Part shown: positions 419 to 37,191 of the stretch, one piece after another
Layout: each line of letters begins with the position of its first letter
Numbering within the stretch: position 1 is the first letter of the stretch
DNA from: Lingula anatina
Lineage: Eukaryota; Animalia; Brachiopoda
Assembly: GCA_051362555.1 (NCBI GenBank)
Contig: CM120643.1
Span: 11,816,644-11,880,643, forward strand
DNA length: 64,000 bases
Direction: 5' to 3'
Notes under the pieces: generated by a model
Told to the model about the DNA's origin: nothing
The model's database searches: none
Seen by the model: only the letters and a program-made list of their open reading frames with translations
Position numbers and translations under genes: made by a program

Positions 419-2860
<2,442 letters not shown>

Positions 2861-3864: not shown

Positions 3865-4129
3865 TCAATTGTTCTCTGTGCCCTACACTAAACTCTTAAC
3901 CCTAAGCATGAGTACATTCTCATATTTTCTTCCTAAAAGCTGATTTCAAGAAAAAATTTATGGAAGTTTCATATGGCAAAGGTTTGTTAAGTTTGTTTTT
4001 ACAAGGATTTACAAACTTGATGATACACACAGAAATATAGCATATTTGTGCACTCTGCCTCGGATTCAAAGCTGCACATTCTAGCGCACCTGTTTGGGAG
4101 TAATGAATATTCAATAAATTTGTGAAGAT

Positions 4130-4236
4130 ACCATCCAATCATATTTGCCTGAAATAGGGCAGGAATTTGGGTCACCCAATCACCAAATAGACCGCCTTAT
4201 TACAAATCTCTGTGGCATATTTCACACAAGTTATTC
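4130..4236 (+). promoter_or_regulatory. H3 promoter (2 CCAAT boxes, TATA-like TACAAAT, cap-like TTATTC), now directly upstream of the full-length LINE
   Basis: CCAAT 4135 and 4176, TACAAAT 4201; same layout upstream of the uninterrupted H3 genes at 19270-19398 and 28523-28651. Confidence 0.75.
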
Positions 4237-4290
4237 CATTCATTCATTCGATTCCACATTCATTCATTGAATACCAAGCTAATACCAATA

Positions 4291-5994
4291 ATGTCCTACG
4301 CTAAGGCTGTTGTTTCCAACACAAAACGTCCTTTTAAGGACGATGAGGTAGAGATGTTGAACCACCTTAGGGAGGTACTGGCATCTCTACCGCCACAGCT
4401 TCGGCAAGCTCTGCTAGCTGATCCCTGTGGCGAAGGTAAGTATGAACAGGATTGCTCTCCCAGGGGCGAGGAGATGCAGGTGTCGGAGCAGGACCGTGTA
4501 CCTGCAAGCGAAGATACGAGTACAACTTCTCCCATGGGCGAGGAGAATTCAGATGCGGAGCAGGGCCGTGTACCTGCAAATCGGTTGGTTAATTCTCCAA
4601 GGGGCGAGGAGATTCAAAACACAGAGCAGGGCCGTGTACCAGCTCTCAGTGGTCCTTTTCAGGGCCACAAAAAGGCGGCAGATATCTCTGGTCTCCCGAT
4701 GACCAGAGAAATGATAGACCCTGAAGAGGGCAAAACCCATCCAAAAAAGGGCAAGACACCCGGTCTCCCGACGACCGGGGACAACGAAATGGATTGGGCA
4801 GTTAGTGAGCAAAGAAAGAAAAAAGGGGAAAAGAGGAAGACAGGTCCTCTGGTCGGTGACCAAACCAGCCCCATTAGAGGGGAGAAGGAGGGAGATAATC
4901 TCTCAAAGAAAGCAAGGAAAAAGGCCGAGAAAAGGGCCAAATTGAACGAGAAGGTGGAGACTGTGGGAGGCGATTTCCGCAAAATCGCCGAGAAGGCTCC
5001 AGCAGACGACCCTCCACGGGGCGAGGAGGGAAACTCCGAGGAATCAGAGTGGACCGTTGTCCACTCTAAAACTAAAAAAAGCGGACAAGAAAACAAAAAA
5101 GCAGAAAGACCTAGGCCCATACTTTTAGAAAATTTGCCTAGGCACCTGGATGACAACCCACTCAAGTTAAAGAAGGTACTTGGTGATGCCGATATCACCA
5201 AAATTGTGAAAACAAAGAAAGGTAACACCCTTATCTTTCCCAAAGATGAGGTTTCGGCTGAGAAGCTACTTGCCCTGAAAAATAAAGAAAGCCAACTAAA
5301 TGAGGTTGGCATAAGAAAAGTAGCGAACAAAAAACAAAGTAAAGAGAATTTGTGCGTGGTCATCTGCAACATAGCAGTTTCAATAACAGACGATGAAATT
5401 AGAAAAGAAAAAGGTCTGTTAGCTAAGCGTATGTTCAGCGCTAAAACAGGAAGCGAAATTAACAAGGTGAAAATTACGTGTGAAAACAAAAATCAAAAGA
5501 AAGAGTTGATTGAAAACGGTTTATTGCTGGGTTATCAAAAATACAAAATTCGTGACTACAAGCCAGTCACAGCACCAGTACAACAGTGCTACAAGTGTCA
5601 ACAGTTCGGGCACGTAGCCGAACACTGCAAGTCAGCCGAGACTTGCAAAAACTGTGGCGGGGCGCACAGTCATAAGGAGTGCAAAGAAAGCACCCGCAAA
5701 TGTGCCAATTGTAAAGAAGAACACCCGGCATCTTTCAAAGGATGCAAGGTGTATAAAAAAGAAATGAACACCGAACAAAAACGCATATCAATAGACAATG
5801 CCAAGAAAGGGAATGTTGCTGAATCTATCAAACTGGCCATATGCCTAGCCAAATTACTGATCAAAGTGACTTCAAAAAGACTAAAAATACAGGCAAACGA
5901 AAGCGACATATGTAAAGACATAGCAGAGGCTGTAGCAACTACTTACAAGGTCAGCATAGATGGTGAAACTATCCACCACGTTGCCTTTAAGTAA
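4291..5994 (+). CDS. LINE ORF1, gag-like nucleic-acid-binding protein (~567 aa from first ATG)
   Basis: Three C-terminal zinc knuckles CYKCQQFGHVAEHC, CKNCGGAHSHKEC, CANCKEEHPASFKGC (I/Jockey/R1-type ORF1); low-complexity acidic/basic N-half. Confidence 0.92.
   Translation: MSYAKAVVSNTKRPFKDDEVEMLNHLREVLASLPPQLRQALLADPCGEGKYEQDCSPRGEEMQVSEQDRVPASEDTSTTSPMGEENSDAEQGRVPANRLVNSPRGEEIQNTEQGRVPALSGPFQGHKKAADISGLPMTREMIDPEEGKTHPKKGKTPGLPTTGDNEMDWAVSEQRKKKGEKRKTGPLVGDQTSPIRGEKEGDNLSKKARKKAEKRAKLNEKVETVGGDFRKIAEKAPADDPPRGEEGNSEESEWTVVHSKTKKSGQENKKAERPRPILLENLPRHLDDNPLKLKKVLGDADITKIVKTKKGNTLIFPKDEVSAEKLLALKNKESQLNEVGIRKVANKKQSKENLCVVICNIAVSITDDEIRKEKGLLAKRMFSAKTGSEINKVKITCENKNQKKELIENGLLLGYQKYKIRDYKPVTAPVQQCYKCQQFGHVAEHCKSAETCKNCGGAHSHKECKESTRKCANCKEEHPASFKGCKVYKKEMNTEQKRISIDNAKKGNVAESIKLAICLAKLLIKVTSKRLKIQANESDICKDIAEAVATTYKVSIDGETIHHVAFK
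4651..4666 (+). other. Histone-mRNA-type stem-loop embedded in LINE ORF1
   Basis: GGTCCT-TTTC-AGGGCC followed by ACAAA; compare host GGTCCTTTTCAGGACCAC (H3) and GGCCCTTTTCAGGGCCAC (H2A). Confidence 0.7.
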
Positions 5995-6038
5995 AACAGA
6001 CTCAAACACACTAACACGCATCAAACCCCTACCCAAAG

Positions 6039-8765
6039 ATGGCGGCACACCTGATGCATATCAACATAAACAGTCTTAAAACCAAGAAACAACTCTTAGT
6101 TGAATATCTGGTAGAGCATAAACCTGACATCGTATGCATAAACGAGACAAAGTTGAGTGAGAAGACAAAAATATCTGTGAGCGGCTATCAGGTGTTGCGC
6201 AGGGACAGAGATGCGCATGGAGGCGGAGTGGCTATACTCGTTAAGAAAGATGTAAAGTTCCAAGCTATCAATACCAGCAACCTTAATGCTGAAATACTGG
6301 GGATAGAAACTACGATAAATCAAATAAAAACGGCTATAGTTTCACTGTATAACCCACCTCATACAACCCCTGACAAAGCAGTATTTAAGCACTTTACTGA
6401 TCAATATCAAAATTGTCTATTTATAGGCGATTTTAACAGTAAGCACGCTTTCTTTGGTTGCAAGAAAACGAACAATAACGGAAACGTTCTCTTTGACATA
6501 ACTGAGGAACTAGATCTGATAAATCTTAATGATAATGGCGAAACTACGCACATGGCCACTAATGGCAATACTGATACGCTGGACATGGCTTTTGTCACGA
6601 CTCAACTTTACTCGAAAATAGCGGACTGTTATGTAGGTGAAGACGTCGGTAGCGACCATCTACCCCTACACGTAAAAATCATTCAGAATAACCGAATAGC
6701 AAGAGCACCAACTGTCTTACGGCGGAATACAAGAAAAATAAACCAACCACTGTTTGACCATCTAATTTCTGAAAATCTAAATGGCGACGCAGTCACACCT
6801 ACCACCACTGGAATAGACGAAGCTTGTGAGAATGTGACCGAGACACTAGTAAATGCACTTGAAACCGCATGCCCAAAAACAAAGGTACGAGAAAATGTAT
6901 GGAGAGTAAGCGAGGACACCCTTAAGCTTATAAAACTGAAAAGAAAACTAAGACGCCTGGCTCAAAAGAAAGAAGGCCCTTTCTATAAAATCATGTACAA
7001 CTATATGACAAAACGGGTCAAAGAAGCCATCAAAAAAGAAAAACAAAAAGCTTGGGAAACCGCTACCTCTATGCTAAATGAAAGAAAAATGGACAAGACC
7101 TTCTGGGACATGTTTAAAAGGCTAACTAGCACTGGCAAAGCTAAAGAAACATCTGAAAAGCCTGTACTCAAAGAAAATGGGCAACTTACAACAAACGATG
7201 CGGAGAAAGCAAATGCATTTGCAAATACCCTTGGCAAGATACATAACACCCACGAGGGGGTCATATTCGACGACGGTTTTAAAGCGGTGGTGGAAAACTA
7301 CGTCGGTAAAAACAAACACAAATTCGATCCCTTATCTAACCCGACATTAGAAGAAGGGGACGATCACAAAATTCTAGATAAAATCACAATAGATGAACTT
7401 AACGGAAATCTGAAAAATACAAAAAACACGTCACCAGGTGACGACACAATAACAAACGGGATAATTAAAAAAGCGCCTGTATGTCTGAAAAACAAACTAT
7501 GCGACATTTATAACAACTGTCTGCAGTTGGGATATTTCCCCACAATATGGAAAAAAGCGACTGGTATAATGATACCCAAACCTGAGAAAGATCACAAAGT
7601 AACAACGAATTATAGACCGATCAGCCTGCTAAGCTGCCTAGGCAAACTATTCGAGAGAATAATCGCCACTAGAATAAAAGAAAAACTAGAAAATGACCAA
7701 TTTTTCAATAAATGGCAAAGAGCGTACATGAGCAAGAAAGAAGGAATGGAACATGTGTTAAGACTAGCTGAAAGTGCACAACTGGCAATAAACAAAGGCT
7801 GGGTTACGGGCGCTATGATGCTGGACGTGGAGAAGGCTTTTGACTCAGTTTGGCACGCTGGGTTAAGGTACAAACTAGCAAATAGTAACCTGCCAGTTAA
7901 GATTGTCCGCTTGCTGTCATCTTTTTTGAAAGACAGAAAGATCAAGGTCAGAATCAAAGGCGAGGAATCCGAATATGTTAGTCTCAATGCTGGCACGCCT
8001 CAGGGGTCTGTAATCAGCCCGTTGCTATTTCTAATATATGTGAACGACCTACCAATAAACCCAAGATACAACACCGAGGTCTCTCAATTTGCAGACGATT
8101 TAGGCATGTGGACATCATGCAAAAATGTAAAAAGCATAGAAATCAGACTGACGGGCGTGATAAAGGATCTCGAATTATGGTGCTCTCTATGGCGGATAAA
8201 ACTAAACACCAAGAAAACACAATTAATCATCTTTTCAAAATCAAATGAACAACCCAAGCTTAACCTCACATTATTTGGCGACCGATTAGAAACATGTGAG
8301 GAAGTCACACTGCTGGGAATCACATTCGACAGAAAACTAGGTTTCAAAAAACACGTAGACAACACAGTGAAAAGAGCTAGGAAAAGAACTGGCCTTCTCA
8401 TAAGACTCAGAGGAACAAACTGGGGGGCATCGAGTGCCTGCCTCCTCAAACTATATAAATCCTTCATTCGGCCCGTACTTGAGTACGGGGCAGTTATACT
8501 AGCTGGCATCAACAAGACAAGGCTCAAAGATCTGCAAAAAATCCAGAATAGAGCGCTACGAATAGCGCTCAAATTACCAACAAAAACTTCGATCGTAACG
8601 CTGCACAAGCTGGCCAACATTGAATATATATCAAGCAGACTATTTTTTCTGGGCACAAAAACAATTAGCAGGTTCGAAAATAGCCATCTATTCAAAGAAC
8701 TTAAGCTAAAAAACATAATATTAAGCAAACCAGGCAAAAATACTACCCTTGACTTATATAAATAA
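6039..8765 (+). CDS. LINE ORF2: APE endonuclease + reverse transcriptase (908 aa), no RNase H
   Basis: APE motifs NINSL, NETKL, YNPP, GDFN, SDHLP; RT motifs YRPISLL, LDVEKAFD, PQGSVISP, QFADD; GTNWGAS C-terminal motif. Confidence 0.97.
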   Translation: MAAHLMHININSLKTKKQLLVEYLVEHKPDIVCINETKLSEKTKISVSGYQVLRRDRDAHGGGVAILVKKDVKFQAINTSNLNAEILGIETTINQIKTAIVSLYNPPHTTPDKAVFKHFTDQYQNCLFIGDFNSKHAFFGCKKTNNNGNVLFDITEELDLINLNDNGETTHMATNGNTDTLDMAFVTTQLYSKIADCYVGEDVGSDHLPLHVKIIQNNRIARAPTVLRRNTRKINQPLFDHLISENLNGDAVTPTTTGIDEACENVTETLVNALETACPKTKVRENVWRVSEDTLKLIKLKRKLRRLAQKKEGPFYKIMYNYMTKRVKEAIKKEKQKAWETATSMLNERKMDKTFWDMFKRLTSTGKAKETSEKPVLKENGQLTTNDAEKANAFANTLGKIHNTHEGVIFDDGFKAVVENYVGKNKHKFDPLSNPTLEEGDDHKILDKITIDELNGNLKNTKNTSPGDDTITNGIIKKAPVCLKNKLCDIYNNCLQLGYFPTIWKKATGIMIPKPEKDHKVTTNYRPISLLSCLGKLFERIIATRIKEKLENDQFFNKWQRAYMSKKEGMEHVLRLAESAQLAINKGWVTGAMMLDVEKAFDSVWHAGLRYKLANSNLPVKIVRLLSSFLKDRKIKVRIKGEESEYVSLNAGTPQGSVISPLLFLIYVNDLPINPRYNTEVSQFADDLGMWTSCKNVKSIEIRLTGVIKDLELWCSLWRIKLNTKKTQLIIFSKSNEQPKLNLTLFGDRLETCEEVTLLGITFDRKLGFKKHVDNTVKRARKRTGLLIRLRGTNWGASSACLLKLYKSFIRPVLEYGAVILAGINKTRLKDLQKIQNRALRIALKLPTKTSIVTLHKLANIEYISSRLFFLGTKTISRFENSHLFKELKLKNIILSKPGKNTTLDLYK

Positions 8766-9169
8766 TGGTACAAATTGTGCATATGAAACGGTCTAACGGT
8801 AGCGACCCCGGTCTCCCGATGACCGGAGGAAGAAAGGAAAAAATACAACCCTGAAAAGGGCAACCTCAGTCCACAAAATAAGGATAAACACATCTGGGCT
8901 CCCGATGACCAGAGACAAGGAAATGGAATGAGAAAACACAATAATACTATAAAGGCGGAGGAAAAAAGGTATATAATATATGTATATTATATATAAAAAT
9001 ATTTATTATAATAACAAACATCTGGAAAAAATTAACAAGCTGGAAGGGGCGGCCAGCGCGCAAACTGGAAAGAGACGGTCAAAAAAAAAAAAAAAAAAAA
9101 AAATCCAAGCGAGACCAAAACCACGTACAGACAAACAATAGAGGCAGAAGACAACAATAAACACGTTTT

Positions 9170-9241
9170 GGGGATTGAAAGAAGCTCTTGTATTTTAATG
9201 CACGAGACTTCGTAACTTTCCCGTGTCGGCTTCGCCGACAC
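9170..9241 (+). ncRNA. Conserved structured 3'-terminal RNA element of the histone-targeting LINEs (also 2342-2413 and 36661-36725)
   Basis: TTGAAAGAAGC-[hairpin]-GACTTCGTAACTT-CCC-TGTCGGCTWCGCCGAC shared by families A and B, with compensatory changes in the inner stem. Confidence 0.7.
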
Positions 9242-9267
9242 AAAACCTATACATCATTATCTTTTAA

Positions 9268-9717
<450 letters not shown>

Positions 9718-14622: not shown

Positions 14623-15463
14623 TTTATGCTTTATTCATACTTTCTGCACCAGACTGAGCTGGTGAAAATGTACATATAGATAAGGTAATAGCAGCAATAA
14701 TAATGATAATAGTAATAGCAAAATACATAGATAAATAGCACCAAAATACATGTATAGGCATGTACCAATGTTTCTACTATGTGAACTAAATCTTCGTATT
14801 TATAGTAGTTATTGATAGACATCATGAAGTTGAAGATGTAGCACAGTTTCTTTTTTTAAAAGCAAGGTTAAGAAATTTGGCCAAGGAAATTATCACTGTC
14901 TCGTTTGGATTATTCATTATAAAGTGGAATTTATCTTTGTTGTTTAAATGTGCAAAGCACGTGTGGCTGCTTTGTATTATTTTAAAGAGTTCTTTTCTGT
15001 GTTCTGTATACAGAGGGCAGGTAATTAAGAAGTGTTCTTCATCCTCTATAACTCCAGGGTGGCAGATTTGGCATTTTCTGTCTTCGACTGGTGTTGGTTT
15101 ACCCTTGACTTGGCGACCTGTTTCTATGTGCAAATTGTGGCTGCTGATTCTGAATTTGGTTAGGGTTTGACGTTTTTCTTTATCTTGTATTATATCAAGA
15201 TATTTTTTTTTCTCAAAATGAAGTTTGAAAGTTTTATACCTTCTCAATTTGAGATTTTCTTGCGATATCCTACTATGCCAAAGTTGTATACTACTGTCCC
15301 TAAGTCTAACGCTAAAAGATTTCATGAAGTTTTTGTCTACTTTCTGTTTGACCCATACGTCTCCGAACCCATTTTCTACAAGAATTTTCTTTACTCCTTC
15401 ACTCCATGACATACTGACTGTGGCGTGTGTTGTGAAGGTTAGTATTTGACAGTCAGTTTATAA
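14623..15463 (-). mobile_element. 5'-truncated non-LTR retrotransposon 3' end (CR1/RTEX-like C-terminal CCHC domain)
   Basis: ORF 14822-15412: LTKFRISSHNLHIETGR...CQIC...EDEEHFLITCPLY; AATAAA near 3' end; short TATACT duplication. Confidence 0.8.
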
Positions 15464-18838: not shown

Positions 18839-19350
18839 TCAATTTTCGGCCTTAAAATACCCTACTATCCGACGCCAACGACCTTATGCAGCATATGTTA
18901 ATTTGATTGGCCAAAACGATCGAGTCACTCTCCACGCAGAAACCCTTCACTTCTCTCAGTTAGCAATGATCCACTGCTTGGAGATTATTATTAGATTCAG
19001 AGAATTGTTCTCTGTGCCATACACTAAACTCTAAACCCTAAGCACGAGTACATTCTAATATTTTCTTCCTAAAAGCTGATTTCAAGAAGAAATTTATGGG
19101 AGTTTCATACGGCAAAGTTTTGTTAAGTTTGTTTTTACAAGGATTTACAAATTTGATGATACAGACAGAAATATAGCATATTTGTGCACTCTGCCTCGGA
19201 TTCAAAGCTGCACATTCTAGCGCACCTGTTTGGGAGTAATGAATATTCAATAATTATGTGAAAATACATCCAATCATATTTGGCTGAAATAGGGCAGGAA
19301 TTTGGGTCACCCAATCACCAAATAGACCGCCTTATTACAAATCTCTGTAG

Positions 19351-19809
<459 letters not shown>

Positions 19810-28603: not shown

Positions 28604-29062
<459 letters not shown>

Positions 29063-32373: not shown

Positions 32374-33210
32374 TTTATGCTTTATTCATACTTTCTGCAC
32401 CAGACTGAGCTGGTGAAAATGTACATATAGATAAGGTAATAGCAGCAATAATAATGATAATAGTAATAGCAAAATACATAGATAAATAGCACCAAAATAC
32501 ATGTATAGAAATGTATCAATGTTTCTACTATGTGAACTAAATCTTCGTATTTATAGTAGTTATTGATAGACATCATGAAGTTGAAGATGTAGCACAGTTT
32601 CTTTTGTTAAAAGCAAGGTTAAGGAATTTGGCCAAGGAAATTATCACTGTTTCGTTTGGATTATTCATTATAAAGTGGAATTTATCTTTGTTGTTTAAAT
32701 GTGCAAAGCACGTGTGGCTGCTTTGTATTATTTTAAAGAGTTCTTTTCTGTGTTCTGTATACAGAGGGCAGGTAATTAAGAAGTGTTCTTCATCCTCTAT
32801 AACTCCAGAGTGGCAGATTTGGCATTTTCTGTCTTCGACTGGTGTTGGTTTACCCTTGACGTGGCGACCTGTTTCTATGTGCAAATTGTGGCTGCTGATT
32901 CTGAATTTGGTTAAGGTTTGACGTTTTTCTTTATCTTGTATTATATCAAGATATTTTTTTTTCTCAAAATGAAGTTTGAAAGTTTTATACCTTCTCAATT
33001 TGAGATTTTCTTGCGATATCCTACTATGCCAAAGTTGTATACTACTGTCTCTAAGTCTAACGCTAAAAGATTTCATGAAGTTTTTGTCTACTTTCTGTTT
33101 GACCCATACGTCTCCGAACCCATTTTCTACAAGAATTTTCTTTACTCCTTCACTCCATGACATACTGTGGCGTGTGTTGTGAAGGTTAGTATTTGACAGT
33201 CAGTTTATAA
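32374..33210 (-). mobile_element. Second copy of the 14623-15463 LINE fragment at the equivalent spacer position
   Basis: ORF 32573-33163 differs by ~3 aa; same flanks. Confidence 0.85.
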
Positions 33211-35138: not shown

Positions 35139-35671
35139 TCAATTTTCGGCCTATAAATACCCTACTATCCGACGCCAACGACCTTAGGCAGCATATGTTA
35201 ACTTGATTGGCCAAAACGATCGAGTCACTCTCCACGCAGAATCCCTTCGCTCCTCTCAGTTAGCAATGATCCACTGCTTGGAGATTATTATTTGATTCAG
35301 AAAATTGTTCTCTGTGCCCTACACTAAACTCTTAACCCTAAGCATGAGTACATTCTCATATTTTCTTCCTAAAAGCTGATTTCAAGAAAAAATTTATGGA
35401 AGTTTCATATGGCAAAGGTTTGTTAAGTTTGTTTTTACAAGGATTTACAAACTTGATGATACACACAGAAATATAGCATATTTGTGCACTCTGCCTCGGA
35501 TTCAAAGCTGCACATTCTAGCGCACCTGTTTGGGAGTAATGAATATTCAATAAATTTGTGAAGATACCATCCAATCATATTTGCCTGAAATAGGGCAGGA
35601 ATTTGGGTCACCCAATCACCAAATAGACCGCCTTATTACAAATCTCTGTGGCATATTTCACACAAGTTATT

Positions 35672-37191
<1,520 letters not shown>

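Follow-up and report, generated by a model that had tools for sequence, protein, structure and literature searches.

CR1-type LINEs end in a hairpin followed by an 8-nt microsatellite, with no A-tail. In the stringent LINEs of the L2 clade, like UnaL2 and ZfL2, a 3’ stem-loop is bound by the EN-RT intervening region of the cognate ORF2, and is required for retrotransposition (PMC4176376). Repeats at the 3’ end, for example TGTAA in UnaL2, are thought to serve template slippage (PMC3747384). R2 is without an A-tail, and in its co-transcripts with the rDNA a folded 3’ UTR of ~250 nt guides the reverse transcriptase (RT) to the point where copying starts (PMC3747384). R1Bm needs downstream target sequence in its transcript for accurate initiation (PMC7265360, citing Anzai 2005).

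Described here are LINEs that sit in a tandem histone array and that end in a fold of ~70 nt. Across this LINE lineage, the fold is conserved as an RNA module of the 3’ end.

The window, which is the whole stretch of 64,000 nucleotides of Lingula anatina DNA that was analysed, is a tandem histone array. Its unit is ~9.25 kb long, with H4 on the minus strand, H3 on the plus strand, H2B on the minus strand and H2A on the plus strand. Two ORFs of 196 aa (14822-15412 and 32573-33163, both on the minus strand) resemble an H1 slot. They are not histones, and match the C-terminal part of ORF2 from another group of LINEs (30-37% identity; loci L030 and L049-L078). Among the other window ORFs tested, Pfam found no H1 gene.

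Three LINE insertions were recognised in the array, by comparing uninterrupted H4-H3 and H2B-H2A spacers, and LINE A itself, each with the window:

4237..9268, plus strand: LINE A, full length, with ORF1 and ORF2 intact (BLAST of an empty H4-H3 spacer against the window)
4224-4236 and 9267-9279: target-site duplications of LINE A, 13 bp, ACACAAGTTATTC
4291..5994, plus strand: ORF1 of LINE A, 567 aa, three CCHC zinc knuckles toward the C-terminus
6039..8765, plus strand: ORF2 of LINE A, 908 aa, APE-type endonuclease and reverse transcriptase, without RNase H
9081..9105, plus strand: internal A-run in the family A 3’ UTR, not the element end
419..2433, plus strand: LINE A2, 5’-truncated, matching the final 2 kb of A with 98% identity
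35672..36742, plus strand: LINE B, 5’-truncated, with its duplication at 35660-35671 and 36741-36752
19361..19371, also 28614-28624, plus strand: empty H3 target site in uninterrupted histone units

The 3’ end of LINE A is either 9266 or 9268, according to how the duplication is read. In its ORF2, Pfam finds RVT_1 (7.5e-32), Exo_endo_phos_2 (5.6e-18) and Exo_endo_phos (2.4e-14). A2 adjoins the cap region or leader of H2A, with the junction at 2433/2434, and ~283 bp of the target are deleted. B is 68% identical to A at the nucleotide level over 593 nt of the RT part. The rest of B cannot be aligned to A, save for a 34-nt match within the 3’ motif.

All three insertions carry the module. The sequences at 9170-9241 (A) and 36660-36726 (B) are exactly as the preliminary description of this DNA had given them; it had missed the copy in A2, at 2342-2413. 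The parts are as follows, where CM denotes the score in the model search discussed below:

9171..9222, plus strand: module core of A (CM 48.1 bits, E 2.8e-10)
9171-9174 with 9219-9222: P1 of A
9175-9176 with 9217-9218: U.U pairs of A
9177 with 9216: G-C pair of A
9178-9180 (AAA) opposite 9212-9215 (GUAA): internal loop of A
9181-9211: P2 hairpin of A
9223..9241, plus strand: P3 hairpin of A, 8 bp with a UUC loop
9242..9266, plus strand: tail of A, unstructured (AAAACCUAUACAUCAU...)
2343..2413, plus strand: module of A2, with the core at 2343-2394 and P3 at 2395-2413
36661..36710, plus strand: module core of B, P1 being 36661-36664 with 36707-36710 (CM 47.0 bits)
36668-36670 (AAA) opposite 36700-36703 (GUAA): internal loop of B
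36711..36725, plus strand: P3 hairpin of B, 6 bp with a UAC loop
36726-36740: tail of B, 15 nt

The fold thus runs from P1 through two U.U mismatches, a G-C pair and a purine-rich 3x4 loop to P2, and then on to a GC-rich P3 and the tail. RNAfold recovers this fold, as it was described earlier, for A, A2 and B. The energy is -32.8 kcal/mol for A (z -6.1) and -32.7 for B (z -4.3), and 0 of 200 shuffles were as stable. Folds of the minus strand are weaker, at -25.2 (A) and -29.5 (B). The geometry of the inner stem had been reported as common to A and B, and so it is: there are 4 double changes in 7 pairs, and both the 1x1 mismatch and the bulged A are kept.

Uninterrupted histone units (19361, 28614) hold no module sequence. 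This means that the module is part of the inserted DNA, and not of the histone spacer. In all three window copies, it lies 15-27 nt before the 3’ junction. Both families indeed end without an A-tail, as first noted: A stops 25-27 nt and B 15-17 nt after P3, and there is no terminal A-run. Family A does have an A-run inside its 3’ UTR. It precedes the fold by 65 nt, and measures 25 A in copy A and ~50 A in A2 (2229-2277). B has (TTTA)8 upstream of the module, inside its 3’ UTR.

Relatives of ORF2 are numerous, the best having 57% identity. An alignment of 24 of them led to the retrieval of 80 metagenome loci. Homologous motifs were then found by reading the DNA 3’ of the ORF2 stop codons; a strict short-gap pattern matched B alone, and loose regular expressions gave mostly chance matches. 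Plain homologues are present in L001, L002 and L003 (one family), L004, L005 (where the contig end cuts the motif), L006, L010, L011, L013, L014 and L017. In L001 and L011 the motif begins 22 nt past the ORF2 stop with no A-run between, which disposes of the notion that the A-run is the LINE end and that the fold is part of something else.

The homologues share an architecture. P1 has 4-6 bp and is followed by the two U.U mismatches and the single G-C pair. In the internal loop, 3 nt (AAR) face 4 nt (GWAA or variants of it). The P2 hairpin varies in both length and sequence, and in L011 the tandem U.U is replaced by U-A pairs. An unrelated, GC-rich P3 directly follows P1 in 7 of 10 families. 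It is absent from L010, L013 and L014, so only P1, loop and P2 are general.

Over 10 sequences, UUGAA (5’ side) and G.A.C (3’ side) are the letters that never vary. It was stated earlier that UUGAAA/GUAAC is invariant. This is true of the window families A and B only: loop positions 13 and 52 are A and U there, versus G and A in the other eight sequences, so that across relatives just UUGAA...G.A.C remains. A likeness of this loop to loop E, or the sarcin-ricin loop, had also been suggested. The consensus of that bulged-G motif is AGUA opposite GAA. The window has CGUAAC opposite GAAAG, with no A before the G, and 8 of the 10 sequences have GAAA, GAAG or GGAA in place of the window GUAA. The likeness does not hold up.

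A covariance model (CM) was built from 10 distinct sequences, and used to search the window and the 80 loci on both strands. It gives 15 matches at E up to 1, all of them on the LINE sense strand and downstream of ORF2. Twenty loci have a best-segment identity of at least 38%, and 15 of these extend at least 100 nt beyond the expected end of ORF2. The motif is found in 11 of those 15 (38-55% ORF2 identity). The other four, L008, L012, L015 and L026, had no CM match, and L008 keeps a P3-like hairpin only. Of the more distant loci, 39 have at least 300 nt of flank, and just L069 among these has the motif. L069 belongs to the L017 family, as a decayed copy that has lost P2.

With CM filters off, the window yields no module beyond its three LINE copies, and the next best match is at 14 bits. 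As a control, 80 viral-contig loci were chosen by an exact pattern for 15 fixed bases. None of these scores above 18.5 bits, while the LINE ends score 47-56 bits. A protein search of the viral contigs found no relative.

A box reading AUGAUGA, like box C of snoRNAs, lies 8-20 nt before P1 in L001 (4565-4580), L004, L005, L006 and L011. There is also a CUGA at the border of P2 and the loop. The arrangement does not match the canonical C/D kink-turn, and the window families are without the box.

Ends of elements can be read from the relatives as well. Immediately behind P3, the sequences of L001, L002 and L003 part, each into a flank of its own. L017 and L069 have ...CAGTCAGTC in common and then diverge, and L014 ends near (GATT)4. 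Terminal A-runs are absent from A, A2, B, L001-3 and L017. The tail of A includes CATCAT. A further tail box, ACCUAY (ACCTAY in DNA), occurs after the module in 4 of 10 families, versus ~10% of random 90-nt windows: in the window at 9244-9249 and 2416-2421, and in the tails of L004, L010 and L014. It may be an initiation site.

Covariation within the alignment was measured against shuffled data. Standard pairs make up 75.0% of cells, compared to 54.8% after shuffling, and 0 of 500 shuffles reach 75.0%; the ten sequences represent about five lineages, so the cells of the alignment are not independent. Double compensatory changes are seen in 10 of 16 pairs, which 3 of 500 shuffles reach. The covariation score is 0.563 versus 0.170 for shuffled data (0 of 500), and it is at most 0.133 if the 3’ partner is slid by 1-3 columns.

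RNAalifold, without being supplied the structure, arrives at the same P1, lone G-C pair and P2, with 10 of 12 pairs kept via double changes. Folding of single sequences yields the architecture for 7 of 8 relatives (z -1.6 to -4.4). The structure could have been called into question by a lack of covariation in further homologues, or by loss of the motif in relatives. It came through both, with the motif kept in 11 of 15 close relatives and compensation in 10 of 16 pairs. Wobble pairs cannot tell the strand, since there are 6 G.U cells and 6 A.C cells. The strand of the module follows from the orientation of the LINE and from the stability of the fold.

Rfam, searched over the whole window at gathering scores, reports three histone stem-loops only (13566, 23680, 31475), none of which is at a LINE end. 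For 8950-9320 with E up to 10, there is only a chance snoRNA fragment. The Rfam R2 element model has no match at the module. Neither do the models in Rfam 15 of known self-cleaving ribozymes (hammerhead, HDV-like, twister, hairpin, pistol, hatchet and others), and the histone 3’ stem-loop (RF00032) has no match at the LINE ends.

By its position and conservation, and by analogy, the module appears to be a well-supported variant of the 3’ recognition structure of stringent LINEs. It is positioned in the 3’ UTR, its structure is compensated and includes conserved unpaired nucleotides, and there is no terminal poly(A). Like UnaL2, ZfL2-1 and ZfL2-2, these are APE-type LINEs with a structured RNA at the 3’ end, no A-tail, and short repeats after it. 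There are also differences. UnaL2 and ZfL2 have a single hairpin that is read via its apical loop, whereas here the invariant letters are in an internal 3x4 loop, tandem U.U pairs flank that loop, the apical loops are free to differ, and there is a second hairpin downstream. The sequences are not alike, and ORF1 here has three CCHC knuckles. CR1 ends are alike in that short repeats follow a hairpin, which here are (GATT)4 in L014, CAGTCAGTC in L017 and L069, and CATCAT in A. Both the motif and the repeat units of CR1 differ from these.

By their protein-coding plan, with two ORFs, three knuckles, APE and RT and no RNase H, the elements presumably resemble Jockey/R1-type LINEs. An APE-type endonuclease, two ORFs and a gag-like ORF1 with CCHC knuckles are all R1-type traits. 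In a comparison with the PDB, the endonuclease matches L1 EN (E 4e-6) better than TRAS1 EN (E 2e-3), and R1Bm EN was not found there at E up to 10; it is thus not close to the R1Bm or TRAS1 endonuclease. A protein atlas gives generic EN-RT clusters only, commonest in arthropods.

R1Bm and SART1Bm likewise have two ORFs, APE and RT, a fixed insertion point in multicopy DNA and a stem-loop in the 3’ UTR (PMC7265360). Unlike the elements here, R1Bm and SART1 use A-tails, and their targets are telomeric repeats and 28S rDNA. With R2 the elements have in common the lack of an A-tail, a home in a tandem multigene array and, as proposed here, transcription along with the host unit. R2 differs by its restriction-like endonuclease, single ORF, transcription by Pol I and far larger fold in the 3’ UTR.

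Informative RNA data come from one stranded, polyA-selected run (X13, same species label), of which ~6% was read; another run, X19, gave 6 reads only, and X16 and X17 gave none. X13 reads lie on the LINE sense strand, with a depth of 4-20 over 9113-9267. Depth is zero at 9268-9310, so in this polyA-selected run there is no read-through into H3 at copy A. From 9242, 9257 or 9258, 21 reads pass into three other sequences. This indicates that ...CAUCAU(U/C) is the end of further family A copies, whose transcripts run into the flanks. These other expressed copies end at about 9256-9258. The depth in X13 peaks at 8803-8957, just upstream of the A-run at 9081-9105. This peak may be oligo-dT capture on the internal A-run, and not a true 3’ end.

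A transcript that reads through from LINE to histone gene had been proposed before. Part of this stands: sense reads do cross the module into flanks, one of which is an H2B cap region. None enter H3 here.

The module is probably a recognition and positioning signal, used for target-primed reverse transcription by the element’s own ORF2 protein. Leading to this reading are the absence of an A-tail, the read-through, a fold near the 3’ junction, variable stems around an invariant loop, retention down to 38% ORF2 identity, and the short tail or repeats. A LINE RNA that has no 3’-end signal of its own would run into neighbouring DNA, in this case histone leaders. By analogy with the stringent LINEs (UnaL2/ZfL2, R2, SART1, R1Bm), the ORF2 protein would bind the invariant loop (UUGAA / G.A.C), held in shape by the variable stems. 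Target-primed reverse transcription would then start in the short tail just downstream of the module. Short repeats like CAUCAU, (GAUU)n or (CAGU)n could aid this start, or alternatively the read-through sequence might do so, by pairing with the nicked target. As the module would fix the start of copying, an A-tail would not be needed. An RT-recognition element was one of two roles offered in the preliminary description. Position, conservation and read-through RNA fit it, and the binding by ORF2 is suggested by analogy.

Conservation and covariation suit any RNA-level role, and stability or export would do equally well. The module could then be an element for 3’-end protection, export or processing that replaces the poly(A) tail, and not an RT recognition site. 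Such replacements do exist, as the histone stem-loop and viral 3’ structures demonstrate, and these elements have no A-tail, with a GC-rich P3 near the 3’ terminus in 7 of 10 families. But the transcripts in X13 run on past the module (21 loose-end reads, against a depth of ~13-20), and P3 is dispensable in three families. What is invariant is the internal loop, as would be expected for a site that binds protein. A role in protection or export alone is unlikely.

Compensatory changes preserve pairing on both strands, and the G.U and A.C counts are equal at 6 and 6. This leaves some room for a role at the level of DNA or on behalf of the neighbour. The module could be a hairpin for second-strand synthesis. 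It could also stand in for the promoter of the histone gene, whose TATA box is displaced by an insertion that falls ahead of the cap site. Relatives retain the module at flanks that are not histones, though, the sense-strand fold is stabler than the antisense one, and conserved U.U pairs with a purine loop are features in the style of RNA. A role at the DNA level or for the neighbour is very improbable.

The second role offered earlier was that of a new cleavage or processing motif, for example a self-cleaving ribozyme or cleavage site that trims the read-through RNA at the element end. Some LINEs carry ribozymes, read-through RNA needs a defined 3’ end, and the fold is compact, with a conserved internal loop. 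Still, the ribozyme models of Rfam do not match, at gathering scores or with E up to 10. There are only ~10 invariant nucleotides, and no pseudoknot or multi-helix core is evident. In X13, reads cross the module and neither read starts nor read ends pile up inside 9113-9267; this counts for little, because under polyA selection RNAs that end at a histone stem-loop, or that are cut at the module with loss of the 5’ product from view, would be missed. The proposal finds no backing in these data, and such a ribozyme or cleavage site is exceedingly improbable. That the module stems from a separate small retroposon or a transduced piece, 3’ of a true LINE end at the A-run of A (A25-A50, which in A and A2 precedes the core by 65 nt) or the (TTTA)n of B ((TTTA)8, upstream), is scarcely credible, since the core follows ORF2 directly in 11 metagenome loci with no intervening A-run, the window has no solo module copy, and A and A2 have the stretch between A-run and core in common.

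The place of insertion is a separate matter. A and B, from different families, are at the same nucleotide upstream of H3 and have the same 12-13 bp duplication, ACACAAGTTATT(C). Empty sites lie at 19361 and 13117. One of the RNA flanks (9 reads) agrees with the H2B promoter and cap region in the window, 25 of 30 positions being identical. At all four histone junctions (A, B, A2 and this H2B flank), the distance from the 3’ junction to the start of a YATTC motif is 8-9 nt. This motif is found 28-35 nt after a TATA-like box in the four core histone promoters. This placement is cap-like, being where a cap site is expected. The insertions are between TATA box and cap site, and all are in histone-gene sense. 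The remaining two RNA flanks (4 and 8 reads) lack YATTC and match nothing in the window, so the aim at histone cap sites is not absolute.

One tentative reading, which we hold to be somewhat doubtful, is that these LINEs are aimed at histone caps, with LINE RNA driven by the TATA box and the module marking its end in read-through transcripts. This would be the lifestyle of R2 in rDNA, moved to Pol II arrays. The nick would be made 8-9 nt upstream of YATTC at H3, H2A and H2B, giving insertion in sense orientation. From there, the histone TATA box would drive a near-exact, full-length LINE RNA. The module would then show the RT where the element ends, in a transcript that has no terminator and runs into the histone gene. 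No LINE that targets histone genes was found in the open-access full-text literature, and histone cap sites appear not to be listed there as a target of any target-specific LINE. By tblastn, the 80 loci have no histone genes beside the relatives, save for L020, with the start of H2A at a contig end.

The module is an RNA motif backed by covariation that has no Rfam family, for a LINE lineage that is found in several organisms. Its small invariant internal loop is an obvious candidate for a protein-binding site. A defined motif with such a loop could serve as a compact model for template choice by stringent LINEs. The module could also be used to look for partner SINEs and to annotate the 3’ ends of LINEs that lack an A-tail. 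Together with the shared insertion point at histone caps, it may open a Pol II counterpart to R2 and rDNA for targeted retrotransposition.

Some further data concern the surroundings of these elements. The LINE relative in L020 (1930-2519) has 33% ORF2 identity and no module, and lies ~560 nt upstream of the H2A start codon. The two are separated by an insert of ~420 nt that ends in poly(A) and has a direct repeat of 21 bp at its borders. In the flank of L013 (2935-3489), an integrase-like ORF (…SDNGSEFTA…) starts ~90 nt past the LINE end, so this insertion adjoins another mobile or domesticated gene, and not a histone.

The 5’ UTR of LINE A (4237-4290, 54 nt) opens with CATTC-type repeats (CATTCATTCATTCGATTCC...). 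These resemble the histone cap motif, and TCATTCGATT also occurs in the H4 leader. The insertion leaves the histone TATA box ~42 nt upstream of the first base of LINE A.

The two H4-H3 spacers that bear LINEs are 100% identical to each other (3867-4166 versus 35303-35602), and 88% identical to those of empty units (19003-19302). They have CAC just before the target, where the empty units have CGT. There is thus a spacer subtype, which either attracts insertions or spreads them.
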